From a plasmid: a stretch of DNA of 64,000 nt. Every line of letters starts with the position of its first letter. The first letter of the stretch is position 1. A model generated the notes under the pieces. That model saw only the letters and a program-made list of their open reading frames with translations. It was not told the DNA's origin and made no database searches. The translations under genes and the position numbers were made by a program. Of this stretch, positions 3,443 through 62,459 are shown piece by piece. The stretch lies in sequence record NZ_CP072215.1; one strand, 5' to 3'.

Positions 3443-4675
3443 ATGACGAAAAGATGTTTTTTTTATATTAAATGTGTATTGTTCGTGCTCGTGTTGAGTA
3501 TAAGCGGAGAAATATCCGCTCAGGAGAAGCGTGATTCGGTAAGGATCTATTTTCATCAAGGAAAGGTAAATATAGATACATGTTTACTTGACAATGGGAA
3601 CGAGATGGAGCGGTTTGCTAAAATCTGTTCCGCATTGAACGACTCCGTCCGTCTTATCAGGAAAATTCAAATAATAGGAGGAGCTTCCCCGGAAGGAGGG
3701 GGGCTGTTGAATGGAAGGCTGTCTGAAAAACGAGCAGAGGTTTTGTGGCGGTATATATCACCTTATATAAAGATTCCGGTATTGGAGAAGGATTTTCATT
3801 TTTCGGGAAGCGACTGGAACGGACTTATAACGATGGTGAGAGCGGATGTGAATGTTCCGGAGAGGGAGGATGTCCTTCGTTTGTTGGAGAAGATCGTCCG
3901 TTTGGAAAACCAGGACAGCCCTTATTTGGGGGGAGAACTGAAAAGACTGAAAGGGGGGAGGCCATACTCATATTTGTATAAATTCCATTTTCCGAAACTT
4001 CGTTCGTCGATGGTGAAAATATGCTATGATAGTGATCCGATAAATCCCGTCAGAGATACGGTATATATACATACACGTGATACGTTGTGCATCCGTGATA
4101 CCGTTACCGTCATAGCTCCGGTAAAGAAACGGCCGTTTTGCATGGCGGTGAAAACAAACTTGCTTTATGACGCTGTTTTGATACCTGACATCGGGGTTGA
4201 GTTCTGTTTGGGGAAGAACTGGTCTGTGGCCGGGAATTGGATGTATGCCTGGTGGAAAAGTGATCGGAAGCATAATTATTGGCGTATCTATGGGGGAGAT
4301 GTGGAGTTGCGCCGCTGGTTCGGTCGGAGAGCGGTGGAAAAACCGTTTTCCGGGCATCATGTCGGATTGTACGGGCAGATCGTCACCTATGATTTCGAAT
4401 TGGGTGGGAAAGGTTACTTGGGGGATAAATGGAGTTACGGGGGAGGCGTGGCTTACGGCTACTCGTTACCTGTGGGACATCGGTTCAATGTGGATTTCAC
4501 GTTGGGAATCGGCTACCTTGGAGGATCGTACAAGGAGTACATCCCTTTGGACGGTCACTATGTATGGCAGACCACTAAAAACCGCCGCTGGTTCGGCCCG
4601 ACCAAGGCGGGTATCTCTTTGGTGTGGTTGATCGGGCGGGGGAATTATAGCCGGAAGAAAGGAGGCAGGCAGTGA
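3443..4675 (+). CDS. Fimbrial-operon outer-membrane protein (DUF3868/DUF3575-like beta-barrel)
   Basis: Signal peptide, then a C-terminal half rich in aromatic/Gly residues typical of DUF3575 beta-barrels. First gene of a three-gene Mfa-like fimbrial cluster. Confidence 0.55.
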   Translation: MTKRCFFYIKCVLFVLVLSISGEISAQEKRDSVRIYFHQGKVNIDTCLLDNGNEMERFAKICSALNDSVRLIRKIQIIGGASPEGGGLLNGRLSEKRAEVLWRYISPYIKIPVLEKDFHFSGSDWNGLITMVRADVNVPEREDVLRLLEKIVRLENQDSPYLGGELKRLKGGRPYSYLYKFHFPKLRSSMVKICYDSDPINPVRDTVYIHTRDTLCIRDTVTVIAPVKKRPFCMAVKTNLLYDAVLIPDIGVEFCLGKNWSVAGNWMYAWWKSDRKHNYWRIYGGDVELRRWFGRRAVEKPFSGHHVGLYGQIVTYDFELGGKGYLGDKWSYGGGVAYGYSLPVGHRFNVDFTLGIGYLGGSYKEYIPLDGHYVWQTTKNRRWFGPTKAGISLVWLIGRGNYSRKKGGRQ

Positions 4676-5637: not shown

Positions 5638-6774
5638 ATGAAAAAAAGTACAGTAATGCTTTGGGCAATCTTTGGAGCTCTACTCATGGGTTGCTCAGAC
5701 GAGGAGATTGCGAATGTGGAAACCTCCTCACGGAATGCGATTGGTTTTAACGTGTTAAGTAATGCGGCGGAAACGAGGGCTACCCCTACTACCAACACCA
5801 ACTTGAAGAACACCGATTTCGACGTGTTCGCTTTTACGGCGGATGGTACTGCCTTCATGGGAAAGGTAGACACGGATTTTGGACATGACGGAGTGAATAT
5901 CGTGTACAATAATGGTAAGTGGGATTATAAAAATGCGAGCGACCTTCGTTATTGGCCTACCGAGGCTTTGGACTTTTACGCATTCAATCCCGGAACGGTT
6001 GATGAAGCCATGCAGTGGAGTTATATGTGGGAAGCCACCAAGGATACTCAAAAGATAACTTATTCCTGCTCCGATGAGTATGGATCTGGTATCAATGCTC
6101 ATGAAAACTACGACGTGATGTATGCCATAGCCAAAGGCCAGACAAAAGACAAGAACAACGGAGTAGTGAAATTTAACTTCAAGCATATTCTGTCACAGGT
6201 CGTATTCAAAGCAAAGACCGAATACGATAACATGCAGGTGAATATAAAGGACATCAAGATTTTTAATGTAAAAATGGGCGGCGTCTACACATTGCCTGCG
6301 ACAGCCGATGGAACGGGAAGTTGGGCTGTGGGTGATTGGCCTGAAAGCTCTACAGGAGGAGGTTTTATTACCGTAGTGCAAGGCAAATTCATCGAGGTCA
6401 ATAGTAATACCACAGCTACCGATATTTCCGAAAAAACTCCTATGCTGAATATACCACAGAAGCTGACAGCATGGAAAGTTTCCGAAGAAGCCACCAATAC
6501 CAAGATAAAAGCCGACGGTGCGCATCAATGTTACCTGTCGATCACCTGCAAAATCCAGCAGTCCGGAGGTTATCTGTTGGGTTCAGCAGATAGTTACGGA
6601 ACAATTTATGTTCCGTTCGGAGATACATGGGTAGCGGGCAAGCGTCATATCTACACGTTGATTTTCGGTGGTGGTTATACTGATCAGGGAGAGGCTGTGT
6701 TGAATCCGATCCAGTTTGATGCAGAGACAACAGGCTGGGTTGATGCAAATAGCAACGTAAACGTTAAACCTTAA
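5638..6774 (+). CDS. Fimbrillin-family lipoprotein (Mfa1/FimA-like structural subunit)
   Basis: Lipoprotein signal (MKKSTVMLWAIFGALLMGCSD), size about 380 aa, and operon position. The start is chosen at the internal Met that gives a canonical signal peptide. Confidence 0.5.
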   Translation: MKKSTVMLWAIFGALLMGCSDEEIANVETSSRNAIGFNVLSNAAETRATPTTNTNLKNTDFDVFAFTADGTAFMGKVDTDFGHDGVNIVYNNGKWDYKNASDLRYWPTEALDFYAFNPGTVDEAMQWSYMWEATKDTQKITYSCSDEYGSGINAHENYDVMYAIAKGQTKDKNNGVVKFNFKHILSQVVFKAKTEYDNMQVNIKDIKIFNVKMGGVYTLPATADGTGSWAVGDWPESSTGGGFITVVQGKFIEVNSNTTATDISEKTPMLNIPQKLTAWKVSEEATNTKIKADGAHQCYLSITCKIQQSGGYLLGSADSYGTIYVPFGDTWVAGKRHIYTLIFGGGYTDQGEAVLNPIQFDAETTGWVDANSNVNVKP

Positions 6775-6962
6775 ACAAAAAGTTTATCAATATCGTACCC
6801 GTTGGCAGGTTAAACATACGCAAGATTAATCCCGCCAACGGGTTCTTTATAGGGAATCGCATTTTCAATATACTTTTTGATGTGTAGGGGTGCTTTTTGC
6901 GTACCTTTTTCCTGGAGAATTTCTTTTGTGGAGTGTTTGCCCTGTATATTCCCGATACGCTG

Positions 6963-7220
6963 TTATAGCAGGGAACTGTTTTTATCCAAGTAGTCAGATA
7001 TAGCCTCTTGCAATACCGATTTTAGCGAATCGCCTTTGCGGATCGCGATCAGCTTTAAGTTCTGGTGATAGGTTTCGTCCATGACAAAATTACAATGCAC
7101 GGTTTTCGCTTTCTTCGGCTTTTGAGCCTCTTTTTGCCCGGCCGTGGATTGGATCAGGCTGTCTAATCCCCCGGTCAGCCCGGCCGACATACTGTTTTTT
7201 AAATCGTTCTTCTTTGCCAT
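6963..7220 (-). CDS. Small partition-associated DNA-binding protein (RHH/ParG-like, putative)
   Basis: 85-aa ORF immediately downstream of parA, 4 bp from its stop. Basic N-terminus with a possible ribbon-helix-helix C-terminus. Confidence 0.4.
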   Translation of the reverse strand: MAKKNDLKNSMSAGLTGGLDSLIQSTAGQKEAQKPKKAKTVHCNFVMDETYHQNLKLIAIRKGDSLKSVLQEAISDYLDKNSSLL

Positions 7221-7224
7221 ATGG

Positions 7225-7983
7225 TTACTTTATTTCTGTTAGCAGTTCGTTACATACCTTTTCGTAGTCCTCTGCCCCGGCAGATTTGGGGGCATAGTGA
7301 AAAATATCCTGCCCTTGTGTCGGGGCTTCGGCCAGCGTAATGGCGTTGCGTATATGGGTGCTGAACACTTTGCCCTGGAATGTTTCCTGTACCAGTTCCG
7401 AAACGCTCTTGTTCAGGTTCTTTCTTCCGTCGTACTGGGTTATCAGAACCCCGGCTATCGAAAGATCCGAGTTCAAACGTTGCTGCACCTTGTGGACGAC
7501 CTGCATAAGTTTGGCCATTCCACGCATTGCCAGGAATTGAGCCTGAACCGGGATAATCAACCGATCCGAGGCCGTCAGTGCGTTAAGCGTGAGCAGCGAC
7601 AGCGAGGGGGGACAGTCGATCAGGATATAATCGAATTTCTCCTTTTGGCCCTTGATAAGGTGGGCTAAGATAAGCTCCCGTCCGGCCTCGTTGATTAACT
7701 CCGTTTCAACGGCCGAGAGATCCAGGCAGGAGGGAACGACGCTAAGGCCGTCCTTATGCTCGTAGATCGGCAGGTCGTATTCGCCTTTCATCGCACCGTA
7801 GATCGTTTGGGGAAGCTCCGCAGAGAAGCCCAGCGATTCGGTCAGGTTGGCCTGCCCGTCAAGGTCGATCAAAAGAACCTTGTACCCTTTTTGACGTAAC
7901 GCACCGCCCAGGTTGATCGTGGTTGTGGTCTTTCCTACTCCCCCCTTGTGATTCAATACGGAGATTACTTTTGCTTTGCTCAT
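7225..7983 (-). CDS. parA: ParA/Soj-family partition ATPase
   Basis: Deviant Walker A (KGGVGKTTT) and the conserved ParA motifs (LLIDLDGQANLT, DCPPSLS). Confidence 0.9.
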   Translation of the reverse strand: MSKAKVISVLNHKGGVGKTTTTINLGGALRQKGYKVLLIDLDGQANLTESLGFSAELPQTIYGAMKGEYDLPIYEHKDGLSVVPSCLDLSAVETELINEAGRELILAHLIKGQKEKFDYILIDCPPSLSLLTLNALTASDRLIIPVQAQFLAMRGMAKLMQVVHKVQQRLNSDLSIAGVLITQYDGRKNLNKSVSELVQETFQGKVFSTHIRNAITLAEAPTQGQDIFHYAPKSAGAEDYEKVCNELLTEIK

Positions 7984-18438: not shown

Positions 18439-19647
18439 ATGGCAAAAGAACTGATTCGTGTCCCTAGGGTGCTTGGGGAAAGCTATAATTCCGTGCTGAT
18501 TGAACGGTTGTATGAGGCAGGTGGAAATGTCATGCTCGATCTGATCATATACCTGGGCAGCTATCACCTCAAAGACTTGTTCGGGACTTCCTGGTTCTCC
18601 GTAGAAGACTTCTGCCGTAAGATGGGGTATGACCGTACCAACTTGCAGCGCAAGCTGGATAGCCGGCAGCTCGCGGCCATGTTCGGAAAGAATATGCAGC
18701 CGGAATATGTATGTACCGACACGGCAGGACAGAGAATCAGCCATCCTATCGAGACGGTTTTTGAGGCGGCTCTCTATAAACTGGGATTGGAGAACCTCTG
18801 CTATCCGACCATTGGCGAGGATGGCCGTACATCCTATAATTTCGTGCAGATCTTGAAACGTTTCGACATAATGACCGATTTCAAGACGAAGAAGTCAACG
18901 AAAAGGCTGTACTCGGCAGTGGTAAGCCCGGAGATAAAGAATTTCATGTTCTCGCTCTATAACCTCTTGGAACTTCAGGATTACCGTAGCCTGCCCAGCC
19001 GTTACCGCTATTTCTATCTGGAACTTTCCAAGATGGTTTACCTGATCAAGTATAAGACCACCAAGAATGAGGCTCCTTTTTATGTGCTGACAGTCGATCA
19101 GCTGGCTAAAAAGCTCGGCATAGAGATTGCCGAACCCAAAGACCGGAAAAAGAAGGTCGCCTCGATACTGAAAAAGATGAATACTTACCTGAAATATACC
19201 AATTTCAATTTCTCTTTTGTGAAAGGCGATCATGAGAGATGGGCATATACCGTGTTGTTCTCGTTTCCTAGGCATACGCTGCACTATTTTGATGAAGGAC
19301 AATATGCTGTCGTGGTGAAGAAATTCTATAAGAACCTGCTTGGGCTGTATGTCGAGATTGCCTACCCGGACACGGATATGGCTGTCAGGAGGAAGAAGAT
19401 CAAAGAGGTGGAGGAAGATGCCGGACTGTATAAAGAGTTCCTTTTATGGGCAAACTCCCCGGAAAGCGTAGAAAAGAAGAAACAGATATATATCAGTGAT
19501 TTCGTGGCTGTATTCGGCAGGTTTCCGGAAGGATGGGCACAGGAAGAGTTGGAGAGTGCCAATGGAACGGAAGTTGCTCCTGCTCCTGAAGAGTTCATAT
19601 CTCCGGAGACGGACGGGGCGGTGAACATGGACGATCCAGCTGTGTAG
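18439..19647 (+). CDS. Iteron-associated protein (putative replication-initiator/DNA-binding protein), paralog of 60637-61767
   Basis: 402-aa ORF whose stop codon lies inside the first repeat of a roughly 32-bp-periodic iteron array. It shares clear similarity in its N-terminal half with the 376-aa ORF next to a second iteron array. Confidence 0.4.
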   Translation: MAKELIRVPRVLGESYNSVLIERLYEAGGNVMLDLIIYLGSYHLKDLFGTSWFSVEDFCRKMGYDRTNLQRKLDSRQLAAMFGKNMQPEYVCTDTAGQRISHPIETVFEAALYKLGLENLCYPTIGEDGRTSYNFVQILKRFDIMTDFKTKKSTKRLYSAVVSPEIKNFMFSLYNLLELQDYRSLPSRYRYFYLELSKMVYLIKYKTTKNEAPFYVLTVDQLAKKLGIEIAEPKDRKKKVASILKKMNTYLKYTNFNFSFVKGDHERWAYTVLFSFPRHTLHYFDEGQYAVVVKKFYKNLLGLYVEIAYPDTDMAVRRKKIKEVEEDAGLYKEFLLWANSPESVEKKKQIYISDFVAVFGRFPEGWAQEELESANGTEVAPAPEEFISPETDGAVNMDDPAV

Positions 19648-19985
19648 AACCGTCCACGTTTCACGGTTTTTTATAGAATTAGTTGTGTAGAAGTGTCCCT
19701 ATTGGGGTGATTAGATGTGTGGAGTCATCCGCTTTGCCTGTTTTAGTTGTGTAGAAGTGTCCCGTTTGTTGCTTCTAGTTGTGTAGAACCGTCCACTCCT
19801 TTTGCTTTAGTTGTGTAAAAGCGTCCGGTTTCACTTGTCAGCTGTGTAAAACCGTCCACCCGTTAATGAAGGGAATAGGTAATCCCTGTTTTTTTTATAT
19901 GTCGGTATATCAGTGAAATAAAAGAGAGAAATTTTTAAATAAAAGGTATCGGCTGTGTAAAACCATCCACCAAAATACATAATAA
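19625..19985. repeat. Iteron array: about 8 copies of AGYTGTGTARAASYGTCC spaced roughly 25-50 bp apart, followed by an AT-rich stretch
   Basis: Repeats begin at approx 19630, 19681, 19707, 19746, 19777, 19811, 19843 and 19952. An AT-rich segment lies at 19870-19950. Confidence 0.8.
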
Positions 19986-21155: not shown

Positions 21156-21322
21156 GGTGGACGGGAGAAATCCCGTCTGCCCGGGATTTCGGCTTCGGGG
21201 TTCTTTTTTGGCAGTCACCCCAAAAAAGAACCAAAAAAATGCTTCCCGGACTATCGGATGCGACATCGTAAAATACGCAAAGACGTGGCTTTTCAGAATA
21301 AATACATATCTTCGCGCCAAAG

Positions 21323-27724: not shown

Positions 27725-28430
27725 ATACTGTGTTTTTGCGTTCACGCAGTATTCTTTCCCACCCTCCCCTTCATCGGAATGACTGTTCTCATTTCCGGTT
27801 TACCCGTAGTCATCCGCTATGCGGCTGATTATGGGCAAACCAGAAAAGAGAAGTTCCAAACGTGGGCGGGATTGCAATGGTCATCATCCGGAGCTTCGGC
27901 ATTGCCGAAACAACCTCCTTCTTCCGTATTGCAGCCCCGTCCTTTTACCGTTTGTCCCGGCAGTCCGTTGCTAACCCGTTCCCCCCTGCCACTTGTGGCA
28001 GGGAGATAGGAATACGGTTTTGCAGGCAAAACCGTATGGCTTGTTTTACTTTCCGTACTGCCCTTTTCCTAGTTTTCTGCCTCCCTTAATGTGCGTTTTT
28101 CATAGCCCCATCTGAGACCCTTTGTTTTTGAACGGCAAATTTATTTCGGTGGATGGATACGAAAGAGTTCCGGTCTTCGCCCTTTGTCCCGAAAAAAATA
28201 ACGCCGGACGGCTTCGCTGTCCCCAACATTTTTTGTCGTCCAAAACTTTTCTTAATCCCTCCTTCCTTATTGTTGTGTGCCGTAAAAAAAAGGCTCATAA
28301 ACTCAGATGGGGCATGAAAGCTCAAAAAAAAAGTCGGCAGAAAGAAAAGGCCATCCCGGAAAGGGGTTTTAAAAAAAGGTCTTTAAATCTAGCTGAAGCA
28401 TAAAATTAGAAGTTTAACAATCCCAAAAAA
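27725..28430 (+). repeat. Conserved structured non-coding leader element, copy C1 (about 700 bp)
   Basis: More than 95% identical to 30790-31485 and 39895-40590. Internal ORFs are not frame-conserved between copies because of indels. Several hairpins show compensatory substitutions between copies. Confidence 0.85.
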
Positions 28431-30686: not shown

Positions 30687-30789
30687 AGCACATTCTCCCT
30701 TCTTTTGGATTAGGGAAGGGAGGGTATTTTGCTGTCCGCTACTTTTTGGCAAGCACCCCAAAAAAGTAGCAAAAAACGCTTGGAGTTAC

Positions 30790-31485
30790 TGGTAATCCCA
30801 TTAATTTGCGTTCACGCAGTATTCTTTCCCACCCTCCCCTTCATCGGAATGACTGTTCTCATTCCCGGTTTACCCGTAATCATCCGCTATGCGGCTGATT
30901 ATGGGTAAACCGGAAAAGAGAAGTTCCAAACGTGGGCGGGATTGCAATGGTCATCATCCGGAGCTTCGGCATTGCCGAAACAACCTCCTTCTTCCGTATT
31001 GCAGTCCCTTCCTTTTACCGTTTGTCCCGGCAGTCCGTTGCTAACCCGTTCCCCCCTGTCACTTGTGGCAGGGAGATAGGAGTATGGTTTTGCTTGCAAA
31101 ACCGTATGGCTTGTTTTACTTTCCGTACTGCCCTTTTCCTTGTTTTCTGCCTCCCCTAATGTGCTTTTTTCATAGCTCCATCTGAGAGCCTTTGTTTTTG
31201 AACGGCAAATTTATTTCGGTGGATGGATACGAAAGAGTTCCGGTCTTCGCCCTTTGTACCGAAAAAAATAACGCCGGACGGCTTCGCTGTCCCCAACATT
31301 TTTTGTCGTCCAAAACTTTTCTTAATCCCTCCTTCCTTATTGATGCGTGCCGTAAAAAAAAGGCTCATAAACTCAGATGGGGCATGAAAGCTCAAAAAAA
31401 AAGTCGGCAGAAAGAAAAGGCCATCCCGGAAAGGGGTTTAAAAAAAGGTCTTTAAATCTAGCTGAAGCATAAGTTTAATTTTAAT
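30790..31485 (+). repeat. Conserved structured non-coding leader element, copy C2
   Basis: See copy C1. A perfect stem CCGGTTTACCC...GGGTAAACCGG is present in this copy. Confidence 0.85.
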
Positions 31486-31497
31486 AGATAAAAGACT

Positions 31498-35460: not shown

Positions 35461-36270
35461 GCGTCCACTTAGTTTTTTCCCACCCACCCTTTCAGCGGAG
35501 TGACTGCCCGGCAGTCTGTTGCTTACCCATATGTCCTAGCCTTTTAGGGCTGTAGATAGGTAGTTGGATATTTCGCTGCCAAATCGGCAGTCCGCTTCAA
35601 TCGTTTGCTTGCTTTTCTCCGAGTGGAGCCTTTCTGCTTTTCCGGTGGTGTAATCTTCTTTTATTGGAAACAGGTGTAGTGGCTGTATGCCTGTGTGGTT
35701 ATGTTCTCCCGCAGAATCCGCAAGTCAGTTCTTCCGTTGCAGCTTTTCATTTTATCGTGCAGTCACTTTTTTCGATACGTGGAATATGATATGCTTCATT
35801 CTTCGGCTTCATTTTTTTAAAAGGAATTGCAGATGTTTCTTCCGGTGTGTCGATAGGCGGCTGACCATCTTTTCGGGATGTGCCATGCTTGCTGTCTAAC
35901 CGGTTGTTTTTTGCATCCTTTCCAAACCTGTTACTGATTTTCAAGTTTTGTCTTTTTCATATCATTTTTTAGGGAAGTCAAATCATTTTCCGTTGCAAAT
36001 ATAGATTGTTGCTAACCCCTTTTACGGGGATAAGGGGACGATTCACAAACACCACGTTGTTATTCGTCTGAAATCTTCCTTTTTTTGCCTTGCACAAAAA
36101 GCGTATTTAACCCGAATTATTCGTTGCCATCTTCACCAATAAAAAAGTTACAAATCTTCCTTTTTCCGGCCAGCATAAAAAGAGTATTTATATCTTTTTT
36201 CATGGTGTCCCCCAAAGCCAACAATCAGTTATTGCACTGTAAAATTGATTAATTAACTTCTAAAAAATCA
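35461..36270 (+). repeat. Leader-element family, variant A (direct repeat of 38495-39460 with an internal deletion)
   Basis: More than 95% identical to the B copy over about 800 bp. The 5' end (TTTCCCACCCACCCTTTCAGCGGAGTGACTG) is homologous to the start of the C copies. Confidence 0.85.
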
Positions 36271-38494: not shown

Positions 38495-39459
38495 GTTTCC
38501 CACCCACCCTTTCAGCGGAGTGACTGTCCCCGTTTCAGGATTTCTCATAGTCACTCGCAGGCTCCGTGATTGTGTGAAATCCAGGAATGGGGAAGGCAAA
38601 GGAGAGAGGCATATCCGGTCTGCTTTCGGAGCTTCGGCCACATCGAGACAACCTCTTTCCGGCGGCTATGCCACTCTCCTTTTATTTGCCCGGCAGTCTG
38701 TTGCTTACCCATATGCCCCAGCCTTTTAGGGCTGTATATAGGTAGTCGGATATTTCGCCGCTAAATCGGCAGTCCGCTTCAATCGTTTGCTTGCTTTTCT
38801 CCGAGTGGATGCCTTTCTGTTTTTCCGGTTGTATAATCTTCTTTTTCCGGAAACAGTTGTAGTGGCTGTATGCCTGTATGGTTATGTTCTCCCCGCAGAA
38901 TCCGCAAGTCTGTTCTTCCGTTGCAGCCTTTCATTTTATCGTGCAGTCACTTTTTTCGATACGTGGAATATTGTATGCTTCATTCTTCGGCTTCATTTTT
39001 TTAAAAGGAATTGCAGAGGTTTCTTCCGGTGTGTCGATAGGCGGCTGACCATATTTTCGGAATGTGCCATGCTTGCTGTCTGACCGGTTGTTTTTTGCAT
39101 CCTTTCCAAACCTGTTGCTGATTTTCAAGTTTTGTCTTTTTCATATCATTTTTTAGGGAAGTCAAATCATTTTCCGTTGCAAATATAGATTGTTGCTAAC
39201 CCCTTTTACGGGGATAAGGGGACGATTCACAAACACCACGTTGTTATTCGTCTGAAATCTTCCTTTTTTTGCCTTGCATAAAAAGCGTATTTAACCCGAA
39301 TTATTTGCTGCCATCTTCACCAATAAAAAAGTTACAAATCTTCCTTTTTCCGGCCAGCATAAAAAGAGTATTTATATCTTTTTTCATGGTGTCCCCCAAA
39401 GCCAACAATCAGTTATTGCACTGTAAAATTGATTAATTAACTTCTAAAAAATCAGAGAT
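38495..39459 (+). repeat. Leader-element family, variant B (full-length relative of variant A)
   Basis: Contains an extra roughly 170-bp internal segment homologous to the C-copy core (GGAGCTTCGGCC..CGAGACAACCTC). Confidence 0.85.
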
Positions 39460-39894: not shown

Positions 39895-40590
39895 TCCGAG
39901 AGTGTTTTTGCGTTCACGCAGTATTCTTCCCCACCCTCCCCTTCATCGGAATGACTGTTCTCATTCCCGGTTTGCCCGTAGTCATCCGCTATGCGGCTGA
40001 TTATGGGCAAACCAGAAAAGAGAAGTTCCAAACGTGGGCGGGATTGCAATGGTCATCATCCGGAGCTTCGGCATTGCCGAAACAACCTCCTTCTTCCGTA
40101 TTGCAGTTCCTTCCTTTTACCGTTTGTCCCGGCAGTCCGTTGCTAACCCGTTCCCCCCCTGTCACTTGTGGCAGGGAGATAGGAATACGGTTTTGCAAGC
40201 AAAACCGTATGGTTTGTTTTACTTTCCGTACTGCCCTTTTCCTTGTTTTCTGCCTCCCCTAATGTGCTTTTTTCATAGCTCCATCTGAGATCCTTTGTTT
40301 TTGAACGGCAAATTTATTTCGGTGGATGGATACGAAAGAGTTCCGGTCTTCGCCCCTTTGTCCCGAAAAAAATAACGCCGGACGGCTTCGCTGTCCCCAA
40401 CATTTTTTGTCGTCCAAAACTTTTCTTAATCCCTCCTTCCTTATTGTTGTGTGCCGTAAAAAAAAGGCTCATAAACTCAGATGGGGCATGAAAGCTCAAA
40501 AAAAAAGTCGGCAGAAAGAAAAGGCCATCCCGGAAAGGGGTTTTAAAAAAAGGTCTTTAAATCTAGCTGAAGCATAAAATTAGAAGTTTA
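39895..40590 (+). repeat. Conserved structured non-coding leader element, copy C3
   Basis: See copy C1. Confidence 0.85.
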
Positions 40591-40612
40591 ACAAACTAAG
40601 TAGCAGAAGTAT

Positions 40613-42460: not shown

Positions 42461-42559
42461 TGAATAGCCCACACATCTAAATGTGTGGGAGTTCTTTTTT
42501 GGAAGACGCCCAAAAAAGAACCCCAAAAAACGTTGTCGCTACACATCGTTACGCTCGGA

Positions 42560-43045
42560 TTATTTGCTTGTCGGCTTTAGTTTGCCGATACATTTTTCCA
42601 TGTCGGGGGACAATAGGAAAGAAGCCGTCTTTTTCTGCTGCACCCCTGAGTGTGGCTGGACGATGGCATACCTGCATTTTAATATCTTGCCGATAACTTC
42701 CGTACTGTCACGGTGCAGGTACATGGCTTTCATGGCATCCGTTGCTTTCAGGCTTTTTTCGGCTTCCATATAGGCGGAAAAGGACGGTTTGAATAAGGCA
42801 CGGGGACTTTCCGCTTTCTGTATGACAGCGGATAATTGTGCGCTTTTGTTGTTCAGGTAGCACAGGCTGTCCGATACGGTGACGTCTTCTGTTTCCAACA
42901 CTTCCAGTAGTTCGAACTTTAAATCCGTCCAGGTGCCGTGAGAATCTGTCTGAACCCATTCCGCAATGGCCTTCTCATAGCCGGGTTTGCTGCATGAGGA
43001 AAAGGCAATGAGCAGCATACAAAAAAATAAATGCTTGATATTCAT
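42560..43045 (-). CDS. Hypothetical lipoprotein
   Basis: Signal peptide plus lipobox (FSSCSK). Confidence 0.45.
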   Translation of the reverse strand: MNIKHLFFCMLLIAFSSCSKPGYEKAIAEWVQTDSHGTWTDLKFELLEVLETEDVTVSDSLCYLNNKSAQLSAVIQKAESPRALFKPSFSAYMEAEKSLKATDAMKAMYLHRDSTEVIGKILKCRYAIVQPHSGVQQKKTASFLLSPDMEKCIGKLKPTSK

Positions 43046-61869: not shown

Positions 61870-62365
61870 GTTTCTTGATTTAGTTGTGTAAAAGTGTCCC
61901 GACTACGGCTGTTTCCGATCCCCCAGTTGTGTAAAAGTGTCCCGAATGGCCGGTTTAGTTGTGCAGAAGTGTCCCGGATTCCTGATTTAGTTGTGTAAAA
62001 GTGTCCCGAATGCAGATTCTAGTTGTGTAAAAGTATCCCGACTTTCCTGTTCAGTTGTGCAGAAGTGTCCCGAATAGTCGGTTAGTTGTGCAGAAGTGTC
62101 CCGGTTACGAGAAGATGCCAGTAAGTGCTAACTTGCAATAATATAGTTGATTATACGGAAAACCTCCCTTATTAGTTGTGTAAAAGTGTCCCACAAATAC
62201 TTAAATCCCTAAAAACCTAAATAAAACGAAGAAATGATTTTGTTACCGTATTCTTACTTTCGGAAAAAATTTTGAGGTGGAAACAAGTAGAGGTTTGAAT
62301 TCTTTAACATATTGTCCAGGATAATAGGCAAAGGGATTTTTCCGCAGTTGTGTAAAAGTGTCCCG
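61870..62365. repeat. Iteron array: 9 copies of AGTTGTGYARAAGTGTCCCG, the first seven at roughly 30-35 bp spacing
   Basis: Copies at approx 61880, 61925, 61960, 61992, 62024, 62056, 62086, 62174 and 62345. An AT-rich segment lies at 62110-62160. Confidence 0.85.
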
Positions 62366-62459
62366 GTTCAATGCCGGCCTTCACTAAAACGGTGTGCAAA
62401 AATAACGCCTGCCCGACGGATGCAGTCGAACAGGCGTATATATTTTTCCGAAAGTAGAA

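Follow-up and report, generated by a model that had tools for sequence, protein, structure and literature searches.

Three palindromic hairpins in the same orientation lie in the 64,000-nucleotide stretch of plasmid record NZ_CP072215.1 analysed here (hereafter the window), and the question that they raise is what a repeated palindrome does at the 3' ends of ICE genes. A first-pass annotation of the window had placed them, together with leader elements, in a cassette-boundary architecture, and had proposed a recombination site among other functions. The analysis described below indicates instead that the hairpins are copies of a palindromic repeat found between ordinary genes across Bacteroidota, and not a special boundary signal of the ICE.

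Three copies of one asymmetric hairpin in the window

All three hairpins exist, shifted by 1-3 nt from their first annotation, at 21199-21239 (copy 1, c1), 30738-30776 (copy 2, c2) and 42491-42530 (copy 3, c3), each with an A-run downstream on the + strand. Every copy consists of a 12-13 bp T-run/A-run stem closed by GG/CC, a loop of 7-8 nt, and a 3' flank that reads NAAC(C), A6-7 and then YG(C/T)T. The c1 palindrome (21199-21232, + strand) has a 13-bp stem formed by GGTTCTTTTTTGG (21199-21211) and CCAAAAAAGAACC (21220-21232) around the loop CAGTCACC, and its unpaired tail (21233-21243, + strand), in which A7 (21233-21239) precedes TGCT, is the conserved 3' flank of the module. In the c2 palindrome (30738-30770, + strand) the 12-bp stem is formed by GCTACTTTTTGG (30738-30749) and CCAAAAAAGTAGC (30758-30770) with the loop CAAGCACC; T5 stands against A6, leaving one bulged A, and the unpaired tail (30771-30780, + strand) is A6 (30771-30776) followed by CGCT. 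The c3 palindrome (42491-42521, + strand) pairs GTTCTTTTTTGG (42491-42502) with CCAAAAAAGAAC (42510-42521) in a 12-bp stem around the loop AAGACGC, and continues into an unpaired tail (42522-42533, + strand) of CCC, A6 (42525-42530) and CGT. The loops measure 8, 8 and 7 nt, which corrects the earlier description of a seven-nucleotide loop in all copies.

A search of the 64-kb window for TTTTTGG-N7-CCAAAAA with up to two mismatches returned only the c1, c2 and c3 loci and one weak site; the 7 matches observed were reached in 0/100 shuffles (mean, 0.88 matches), and a generic scan of the window for T-rich/A-rich hairpins revealed no further copy of this type. Whether treated as RNA or as DNA, each of the three copies was predicted to fold into a hairpin on either strand (z-scores, -2.7 to -6.0). 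Rfam 15, applied with gathering thresholds, gave no match in the window at or near the gathering score; the module is a short, strongly constrained palindrome without an entry in Rfam.

The hairpins lie in terminator zones downstream of leading-region-like genes

The stop codon of a + strand gene lies 35-56 nt upstream of each copy, namely that of RadC (21155) for c1, of an unassigned 117-aa ORF (30686) for c2 and of PcfJ (42460) for c3, in agreement with the earlier placement of the palindrome after the last gene of a transcription unit; c3 lies between the convergent genes PcfJ (+) and an ORF at 42560-43045 (-). A gene-specific GC hairpin is located directly 5' of each copy. Two such hairpins follow the RadC stop (21160-21199, + strand; terminator-like matches and folds), and the second (21180-21199) abuts the c1 T-arm, which is its T-tract. 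Upstream of c2 by 12 nt, the terminator search and the folds identified a canonical terminator-like hairpin with its own T-run (30692-30725, + strand). At c3, the GC hairpin CCCACACAT-CTAA-ATGTGTGGG (42468-42489) is terminator-like on both strands and has the c3 T-arm as its + strand T-tract; a C-G to U.G change in orthologues preserves the + strand pair. Because the GC hairpin ends 0-2 nt before GTTCTTTTTT, the T-arms of c1 and c3 are the T-tracts of canonical-looking terminators, a point absent from the first-pass annotation, and the T-arm doubles in this way as the T-tract of an abutting GC hairpin also in loci L131, L193, L217 and L231.

The palindrome itself has no U-tract downstream on either strand: A6-7 comes next on the + strand, GC-rich sequence on the - strand. 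The mark of an intrinsic terminator, a GC-rich stem-loop with a U-tract within 0-2 nt, is shown by the upstream GC hairpins that use the T-arm and not by the palindrome, as had been concluded before for both strands from the A-run that follows each copy. The A-run does not act as the T-tract of a minus-strand terminator in the ICE, and a GC hairpin abuts it in only 3/22 family copies, which rules out an origin of the module from face-to-face convergent terminators. An upstream terminator hairpin was likewise ruled out as a universal partner, since a strong GC hairpin abuts the T-arm of just 6/23 copies. Promoter readings (Bacteroidetes -33/-7, sigma-54, UP element) were rejected because the boxes, compared by eye, lie at no consistent distance, and small-ORF or frameshift readings of A6G/A7, as well as an in-frame TAG from the conserved CTAG, were rejected because the frames disagree between copies.

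The genes between 18 and 43 kb encode RadC, LPD28, an N6 methylase, YpsA-SLOG, DUF3791/DUF3990, HipA, SSB, PcfK and PcfJ, with a relaxase at 15.4-16.3 kb and a Toprim primase at 43.1-44.1 kb. The block is leading-region-like in the sense of PMC11541004.

Pairing is preserved in orthologous copies

The c3 hairpin is kept in 61 metagenomic contigs that carry PcfJ orthologues. Two independent U-A to G-C double changes were found at different stem positions in PcfJ lineages (TTGTTTGG/CCAAACAA and T5GGG/CCCA5), one PcfJ-linked variant has G.U at the position of the TTGTTTGG/CCAAACAA change, and L269 carries an inverted loop between unaltered arms. Of the cells in the PcfJ alignment, 99.4% are paired, and 0/500 shuffles attained the observed score for pairing or covariation. 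The wobble pairs were contradictory as to the folding strand; in L263 a + strand G.U occurs once, as does a C.A that would be U.G on the - strand.

The c1 orthologue behind a RadC of 83% identity has a 44-nt core that is 100% identical, including the loop, A7 and TGCT, and its flanks of 50-60 nt are 73-75% identical. A lineage with 76% RadC identity keeps a core of 91% identity despite a different downstream gene, and one with 62% identity has a plain GC hairpin only. Orthologues of c2 are present in L240, L241 and L262, and the module stays with the upstream gene where the downstream DNA differs (L262, L323).

Covariation extends to the outer stem, which is GTTC/GAAC or GCTA/TAGC in the copies of the window, and the earlier observation of this change extends to the family as a whole: of the three pairs that flank the 9-bp core, each is Watson-Crick in 18/22 family copies, for a total of 62 Watson-Crick pairs versus 38.2 +/- 3.5 in shuffles, with 0/5000 shuffles reaching 62. 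Pairing, rather than exact sequence, is preserved by selection, and the compensatory changes in orthologues and the better conservation of the core relative to its flanks uphold the view that the structure is maintained. On the best-supported reading, purifying selection has kept each palindrome in the ICE along with the 3' end of its upstream gene (RadC, the 117-aa gene or PcfJ).

The module belongs to a family dispersed between genes of Bacteroidota

Species-representative genomes were scanned with the pattern CTTTTTTGG-N7,8-CCAAAAAAG, which yielded at least 117 loci. Among the matches listed, an A-run is present on exactly one side in 36/117 exact-core sites, and a C..CC loop in the A-run orientation occurs in 22/36 of these one-sided sites versus 1/80 sites without an A-run; these figures show that the asymmetric module forms a real family, with the consensus N3-4 CT6GG CAT(C/T)GCC CCA6G NAAC(C) A6-7, followed by YGCT or GCTCTAG, with a unit length of ~45-50 nt and a loop of 7-8 nt that is usually C..CC. 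Members among the matches listed belong to Bacteroidales, Rikenellaceae, Crocinitomicaceae, Flavobacteriales, Saprospiraceae, Lewinellaceae, Roseivirga and Aureispira, and further ones to two MAGs labelled Peribacteria and Margulisiibacteriota and to two Pseudomonas shirazensis isolates; the c1 and c3 orthologues in Parabacteroides massiliensis are two further loci of the scan. The module is a dispersed intergenic repeat of Bacteroidota that is found in gut Bacteroidales as well as marine Saprospiraceae; relatives occur in one Pseudomonas species, P. shirazensis, and Planctomycetaceae carry related T6GG/CCA6 palindromes.

Several genomes carry the module more than once, with at least four contigs of one Saprospiraceae MAG, at least three of a Lewinella MAG, at least two of a Bacteroidales MAG and at least four copies in P. 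shirazensis. Copies within a genome have long lineage-specific flanks in common, and between genomes the core alone is common. The module lies 14 nt after the PepSY_TM stop in L166 and L224 and is present in a lineage of 98% identity, and it is absent downstream of PepSY_TM orthologues at 86, 80, 75 and 74% protein identity. In the MAG labelled Peribacteria, two 99%-identical units of 160 nt (L145, reverse strand, 6757-7740) start exactly at the hairpin foot and bracket a small toxin-antitoxin pair, with a HicB-like gene following, a layout like that of a cassette array. Two inverted copies in P. shirazensis are 640 bp apart, inside ~300-bp inverted repeats.

All copies are intergenic, and the neighbours of the chromosomal ones are unrelated housekeeping genes, for example FtsY, ThiG, HisA/F and PNPOx. 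Where an upstream gene ends within 120 nt, it is co-oriented in 13/15 cases (~10 to 2 after removal of related loci), and divergent gene starts adjoin some copies (Lewinella, L174, L229). The first-pass annotation had held that random occurrence of the motif in Bacteroides chromosomes, with no positional bias, would speak against its proposal; chromosomal copies are indeed widespread, but a bias toward gene 3' ends remains. Chromosomal copies that start 15-115 nt downstream of a stop and lack a canonical terminator in the vicinity include L166/L224, L192, L138, L140 and L126, and in L124 a different GC hairpin is likewise followed by A7-CTCTAGCGCT.

Among the top families of the 94 neighbouring ORFs, no recurrent recombinase or transposase, and no RAYT or Y1 transposase, was found, and no tRNA or tmRNA was found adjacent to copies. 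In 16 + 8 family loci the motif itself matched no Rfam family, a run at E<=1 included; a TwoAYGGAY match adjoins the Pseudomonas copies only. In IMG/VR, the 16-nt core gave chance matches only and the family-specific pattern gave 0 viral matches. A literature search on the motif sequence and on Bacteroidota terminators or REPs returned no description of the motif.

Cassette turnover maps to the leader repeats

Leader repeats of ~690 nt are located upstream of leading-region cassettes, with five copies in the window: type-1 leaders at 27735-28420, 30805-31490 and 39907-40594, which are 97% identical, and type-2 leaders at 35476-36190 and 38496-39374. Either strand folds very strongly when single-stranded (z -6.3 and -6.5), and a long hairpin forms around CCGGTTTACCCGTAATCATCCGC...GGGTAAACCGG. 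The repeats are candidate single-strand promoters or structured 5' leaders. The type-2 leaders also hold small hairpins, CTTTTTTTG-CCTTG-CAYAAAAAG, at 36079-36101 and 39263-39285, which are built in the T-arm/A-arm style and lie outside the family.

In the related ICEs L240, L241 and L262, the c2-bearing cassette is joined directly to the PcfK/PcfJ cassette via a single leader copy, and the 9.1 kb that separates leader copies 30805 and 39907 in the window is missing. This indel is a crossover within 97%-identical leaders; turnover therefore proceeds by leader recombination, and the hairpin stays with the upstream gene. No recombination endpoint was found in the loop in the 61 PcfJ contexts or in the L240, L241, L262 and L251 variants. 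In L262, different cargo starts right after the A-run, outside the palindrome, and in L251 an IS1182-like insertion sequence (3750-4500) immediately after the PcfJ stop has removed the hairpin from the junction. Only one of the five leader copies is preceded by a hairpin; the other 4/5 have none upstream, which rules out a hairpin-leader link, and the DNA downstream of c1 has only 130 nt in common with the leader 3' end. The proposed cassette-boundary architecture is therefore contradicted by the leaders, and also by the presence of the motif beside housekeeping genes in Bacteroidota and Pseudomonas. The palindrome is not the cassette recombination site that had been suggested: the cassette indel lies inside the leader repeats, no recombination junction maps to a loop, and each of the three copies has a loop sequence of its own. 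A tempting model, in which ICE cassettes are delimited by a hairpin recombination site, is thereby set aside.

Other repeats and insertions were seen in the same elements. Iteron arrays of the AGTTGTGTARAAGTGTCCC type with a 32-bp period lie at 19635-19970 and 61872-62366 (4-6 and ~10 units, respectively), of which one adjoins an HTH_36 ORF (18439-19647) and the other is inside the tra-side region, and the P. massiliensis ICE carries a group II intron (RF00029; L227, 808-904).

A proposed REP-like palindrome and its alternatives

Each site may well be one copy of an asymmetric REP-like dispersed extragenic palindrome located in terminator zones, a reading to which we give about an even chance. 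Upon read-through of the upstream terminator, the RNA would fold into a stem-loop of 12-15 bp with an A-rich tail, and this stem-loop could act, as REPs do, as a 3'-end barrier or insulator between transcription units; as DNA, the family would spread or persist via some hairpin-recognising process. Against the REP-like reading, the conserved unpaired A-run is left without account, and REPs are normally lineage-specific, a 50-nt core conserved across phyla being unusual for them. It is possible, if rather unlikely, that the module is instead a unit of DNA alone, in which the hairpin in single-stranded DNA (lagging-strand template or transferred strand) and the NAAC-A6-YGCT flank form the substrate that a hairpin-specific HUH enzyme recognises and cleaves (RAYT or IS200/IS605-like) or a priming signal, and the ICE copies are passengers without a transcript role. 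Such a unit would suit the dispersed, multi-copy and sporadic distribution, the L145 unit that begins exactly at the hairpin foot, the inverted loop of L269, in which the kept arms indicate pairing in DNA, the inverted REPIN-like pair in P. shirazensis, the selection for pairing over sequence beside a conserved single-stranded flank, as in IS200/IS605 ends, and the leading-region-like surroundings (relaxase, SSB, methylase and toxin-antitoxin genes). However, the top families of the 94 neighbouring ORFs include no Y1 transposase and no other recurrent enzyme, no target-site duplication or empty-site pair was found, and the chromosomal copies disfavour a conjugation-specific role. Vertical inheritance of the ICE copies with their upstream genes, and their better conservation than the flanks, further suggest that the ICE benefits from them. 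A dedicated, non-mobile 3'-end signal, read as 'hairpin plus A-tract' by a host factor (RNase, RRM-type RNA-binding protein or RNA polymerase) that terminates, processes or stabilises mRNA, would account for the orientation-specific conservation of the unpaired A-run, the chromosomal copies that follow a stop with no canonical terminator nearby, the A7-CTCTAGCGCT behind the unrelated GC hairpin of L124 and a core conserved across orders. We consider this quite improbable: the module is missing at orthologous sites of related genomes and is embedded in dispersed longer repeats, and rA:dT hybrids are not expected to favour transcript release. According to published surveys, moreover, Bacteroidota terminators come close to the typical hairpin-plus-U types (PMC13613805; RNIE counts, PMC3152330).

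A palindromic operator or architectural site in double-stranded DNA, bound by a dimeric regulator or by a nucleoid protein that recognises phased A-tracts, is very improbable; two A-tracts do lie ~11-12 bp apart, and an unrelated palindrome with the same arms, CTTTTTTGGAATCAATTCCAAAAAAG, is found directly upstream of Bacteroidetes -7 boxes (TAnnTTTG), where its T6GG can supply the -33 TTTG, but the compensatory T/A to G/C changes keep pairing while altering the protein-readable sequence, the outer-stem covariation points in the same direction, no promoter motif lies at a fixed distance and the flanking genes are functionally unrelated. Extremely improbable is that the palindrome delimits the ICE cassettes as a site of site-specific recombination, whether one resembling integron attC or the core site of a tyrosine recombinase. 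The inverted arms of 9-13 bp, the 7-8 bp spacer and a third direct half-site (CCAAAAAAG ... CAAAAAA) have the appearance of one, and the cargo change in L262 right after the A-run and the bracketing of a toxin-antitoxin cassette by the two L145 copies would fit; yet the 9.1-kb indel is a crossover in leaders, none of the 61 PcfJ contexts has a junction in the loop, the copies could not recombine mutually because their spacers are different, the attC R''/R' boxes (RYYYAAC...GTTRRRY) are not in that order, and chromosomal copies lie beside housekeeping genes with no integrase nearby.

The conserved A-run and the constancy of the core across phyla leave room for a more novel reading, which we judge distinctly unlikely: the ~50-nt module (T6GG, loop, CCA6G, NAAC, A6, YGCT) would be an undescribed cross-phylum element, either a new class of REP-like mobile DNA read by a conserved hairpin- or single-strand-specific enzyme or a non-canonical 'hairpin then A-tract' 3'-end signal read by the RNA machinery of the cell, and the ICE would have recruited it to insulate leading-region transcription units. 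Should the module prove to have a dedicated reader (a transposase or an RNA 3'-end factor), it would add a REP-like system of a new kind to a phylum in which repeats of this sort have received little study, and would be of use in annotating transcription-unit ends in Bacteroidota.

Comparison with known systems

The REP/BIME elements of Enterobacteria and Pseudomonas, which are mobilised by RAYT and include REPINs, are likewise short extragenic imperfect palindromes (20-40 nt) at gene 3' ends, occur in composite lineage-specific repeats, sometimes as inverted pairs (as the module does in L231), and are able to fold in RNA or in single-stranded DNA. REPs are dispersed in many copies per genome; for the module, the figures are at least four contigs in one Saprospiraceae MAG, at least three in a Lewinella MAG and at least four copies in P. 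shirazensis. Their stems are GC-rich, whereas that of the module is A/T-rich, and the module differs further in a core common to several orders, even phyla, and in having no linked RAYT. A GTAG or CGTC tetranucleotide stands at one end of REPs (PMC3733652); the module lacks this tag and is flanked by N3-4 and by NAAC plus the A-run (NAAC-A6-YGCT tail). The resemblance to intrinsic (Rho-independent) terminators, including tandem or 'V-shaped' ones, lies in the terminator-zone location and in the T-arm that is the T-tract in c1 and c3, and a longer form in Planctomycetaceae, GGGGA...TCCCC followed by a T-run, is that of a normal terminator; in the palindrome, the order of hairpin and then U-tract is absent because the A-run follows on the + strand and T-runs precede on the - strand.

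Integron attC sites are also imperfect palindromes at cassette 3' ends and work as folded single strands, but they have R'' (RYYYAAC) 5' and R' (GTTRRRY) 3', the reverse of the GTTN at the 5' foot and NAAC at the 3' foot of the module, which is not associated with an integrase, forms no arrays in the ICE and is bypassed by a cassette turnover that maps to the leaders. Tyrosine-recombinase core sites resemble it in their inverted arms (9-13 bp) around a spacer of 7-8 nt, the core-site overlap being 6-8 bp, but require identical overlaps and a recombinase; the spacers CAGTCACC, CAAGCACC and AAGACGC differ, and no recombinase recurs at the chromosomal copies. With the subterminal hairpins of IS200/IS605 and with PATEs, the module has in common a hairpin with a conserved single-stranded flank, pairing that is kept while sequence drifts, and repeat units of which some begin at the hairpin foot (L145, Saprospiraceae); in contrast to these, no second end, no tnpA/tnpB nearby and no defined target tetranucleotide was found for it. 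The Frpo/ssi single-strand promoters (PMC11541004) occur in a comparable leading-region-like block with methylase, SSB and toxin-antitoxin genes; Frpo are long hairpins with -35/-10 boxes upstream of genes, whereas the module is a 34-nt hairpin downstream of them, has no promoter boxes and is also chromosomal.

Related hairpins and neighbouring repeats

Several other repeats were encountered alongside the family. A second module lies 15-90 nt downstream of chromosomal copies (L224, 2400-2450; L124, L166, L131, L140, L165, L164), has a stem that is wholly different between genomes and covaries, and encloses the conserved loop AAACTCGCT...GCTCA(A/G)ACA; Rfam contains no match to this second module, and the ICE copies are not followed by it. 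In P. shirazensis (L231, 4819-5545; L174, L223), the AT-rich module is positioned near the outer ends of the ~300 bp inverted repeats, which contain TwoAYGGAY (RF01731) matches and a central classical REP and form a REPIN-like composite in a GC-rich genome.

Planctomycetaceae MAGs carry at least 12 copies of GGGGA-CT6GG-N8-CCA6G-TCCCC (L122, L130, L132, L139, L151, L172, L173, L196, L200, L201, L206, L214), usually followed by a T-run, the normal terminator form, then by a second T-run/A-run hairpin and GCCAAAAAACG, and adjoining other REP-like repeats (CCCTCACCCCCGGCCCCTCTCCCGCAAGGGGCGAGGGG). Another repeat family in Flavobacteriia (L127, L136, L141, L148, L158) has the same CT6GG..CCA6G hairpin between GGGATTGTAGYGGAAAT and ATTGGAACGGAAAGCCCGACC. 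The unrelated perfect palindrome CTTTTTTGGAATCAATTCCAAAAAAG, often in tandem, occurs in rumen and gut Bacteroidales (L129, L133, L183, L189, L202, L209, L221) 3-4 nt upstream of the Bacteroidetes -7 box, and the location of its T6GG arm at the expected place of the -33 TTTG suggests a palindromic promoter or operator.
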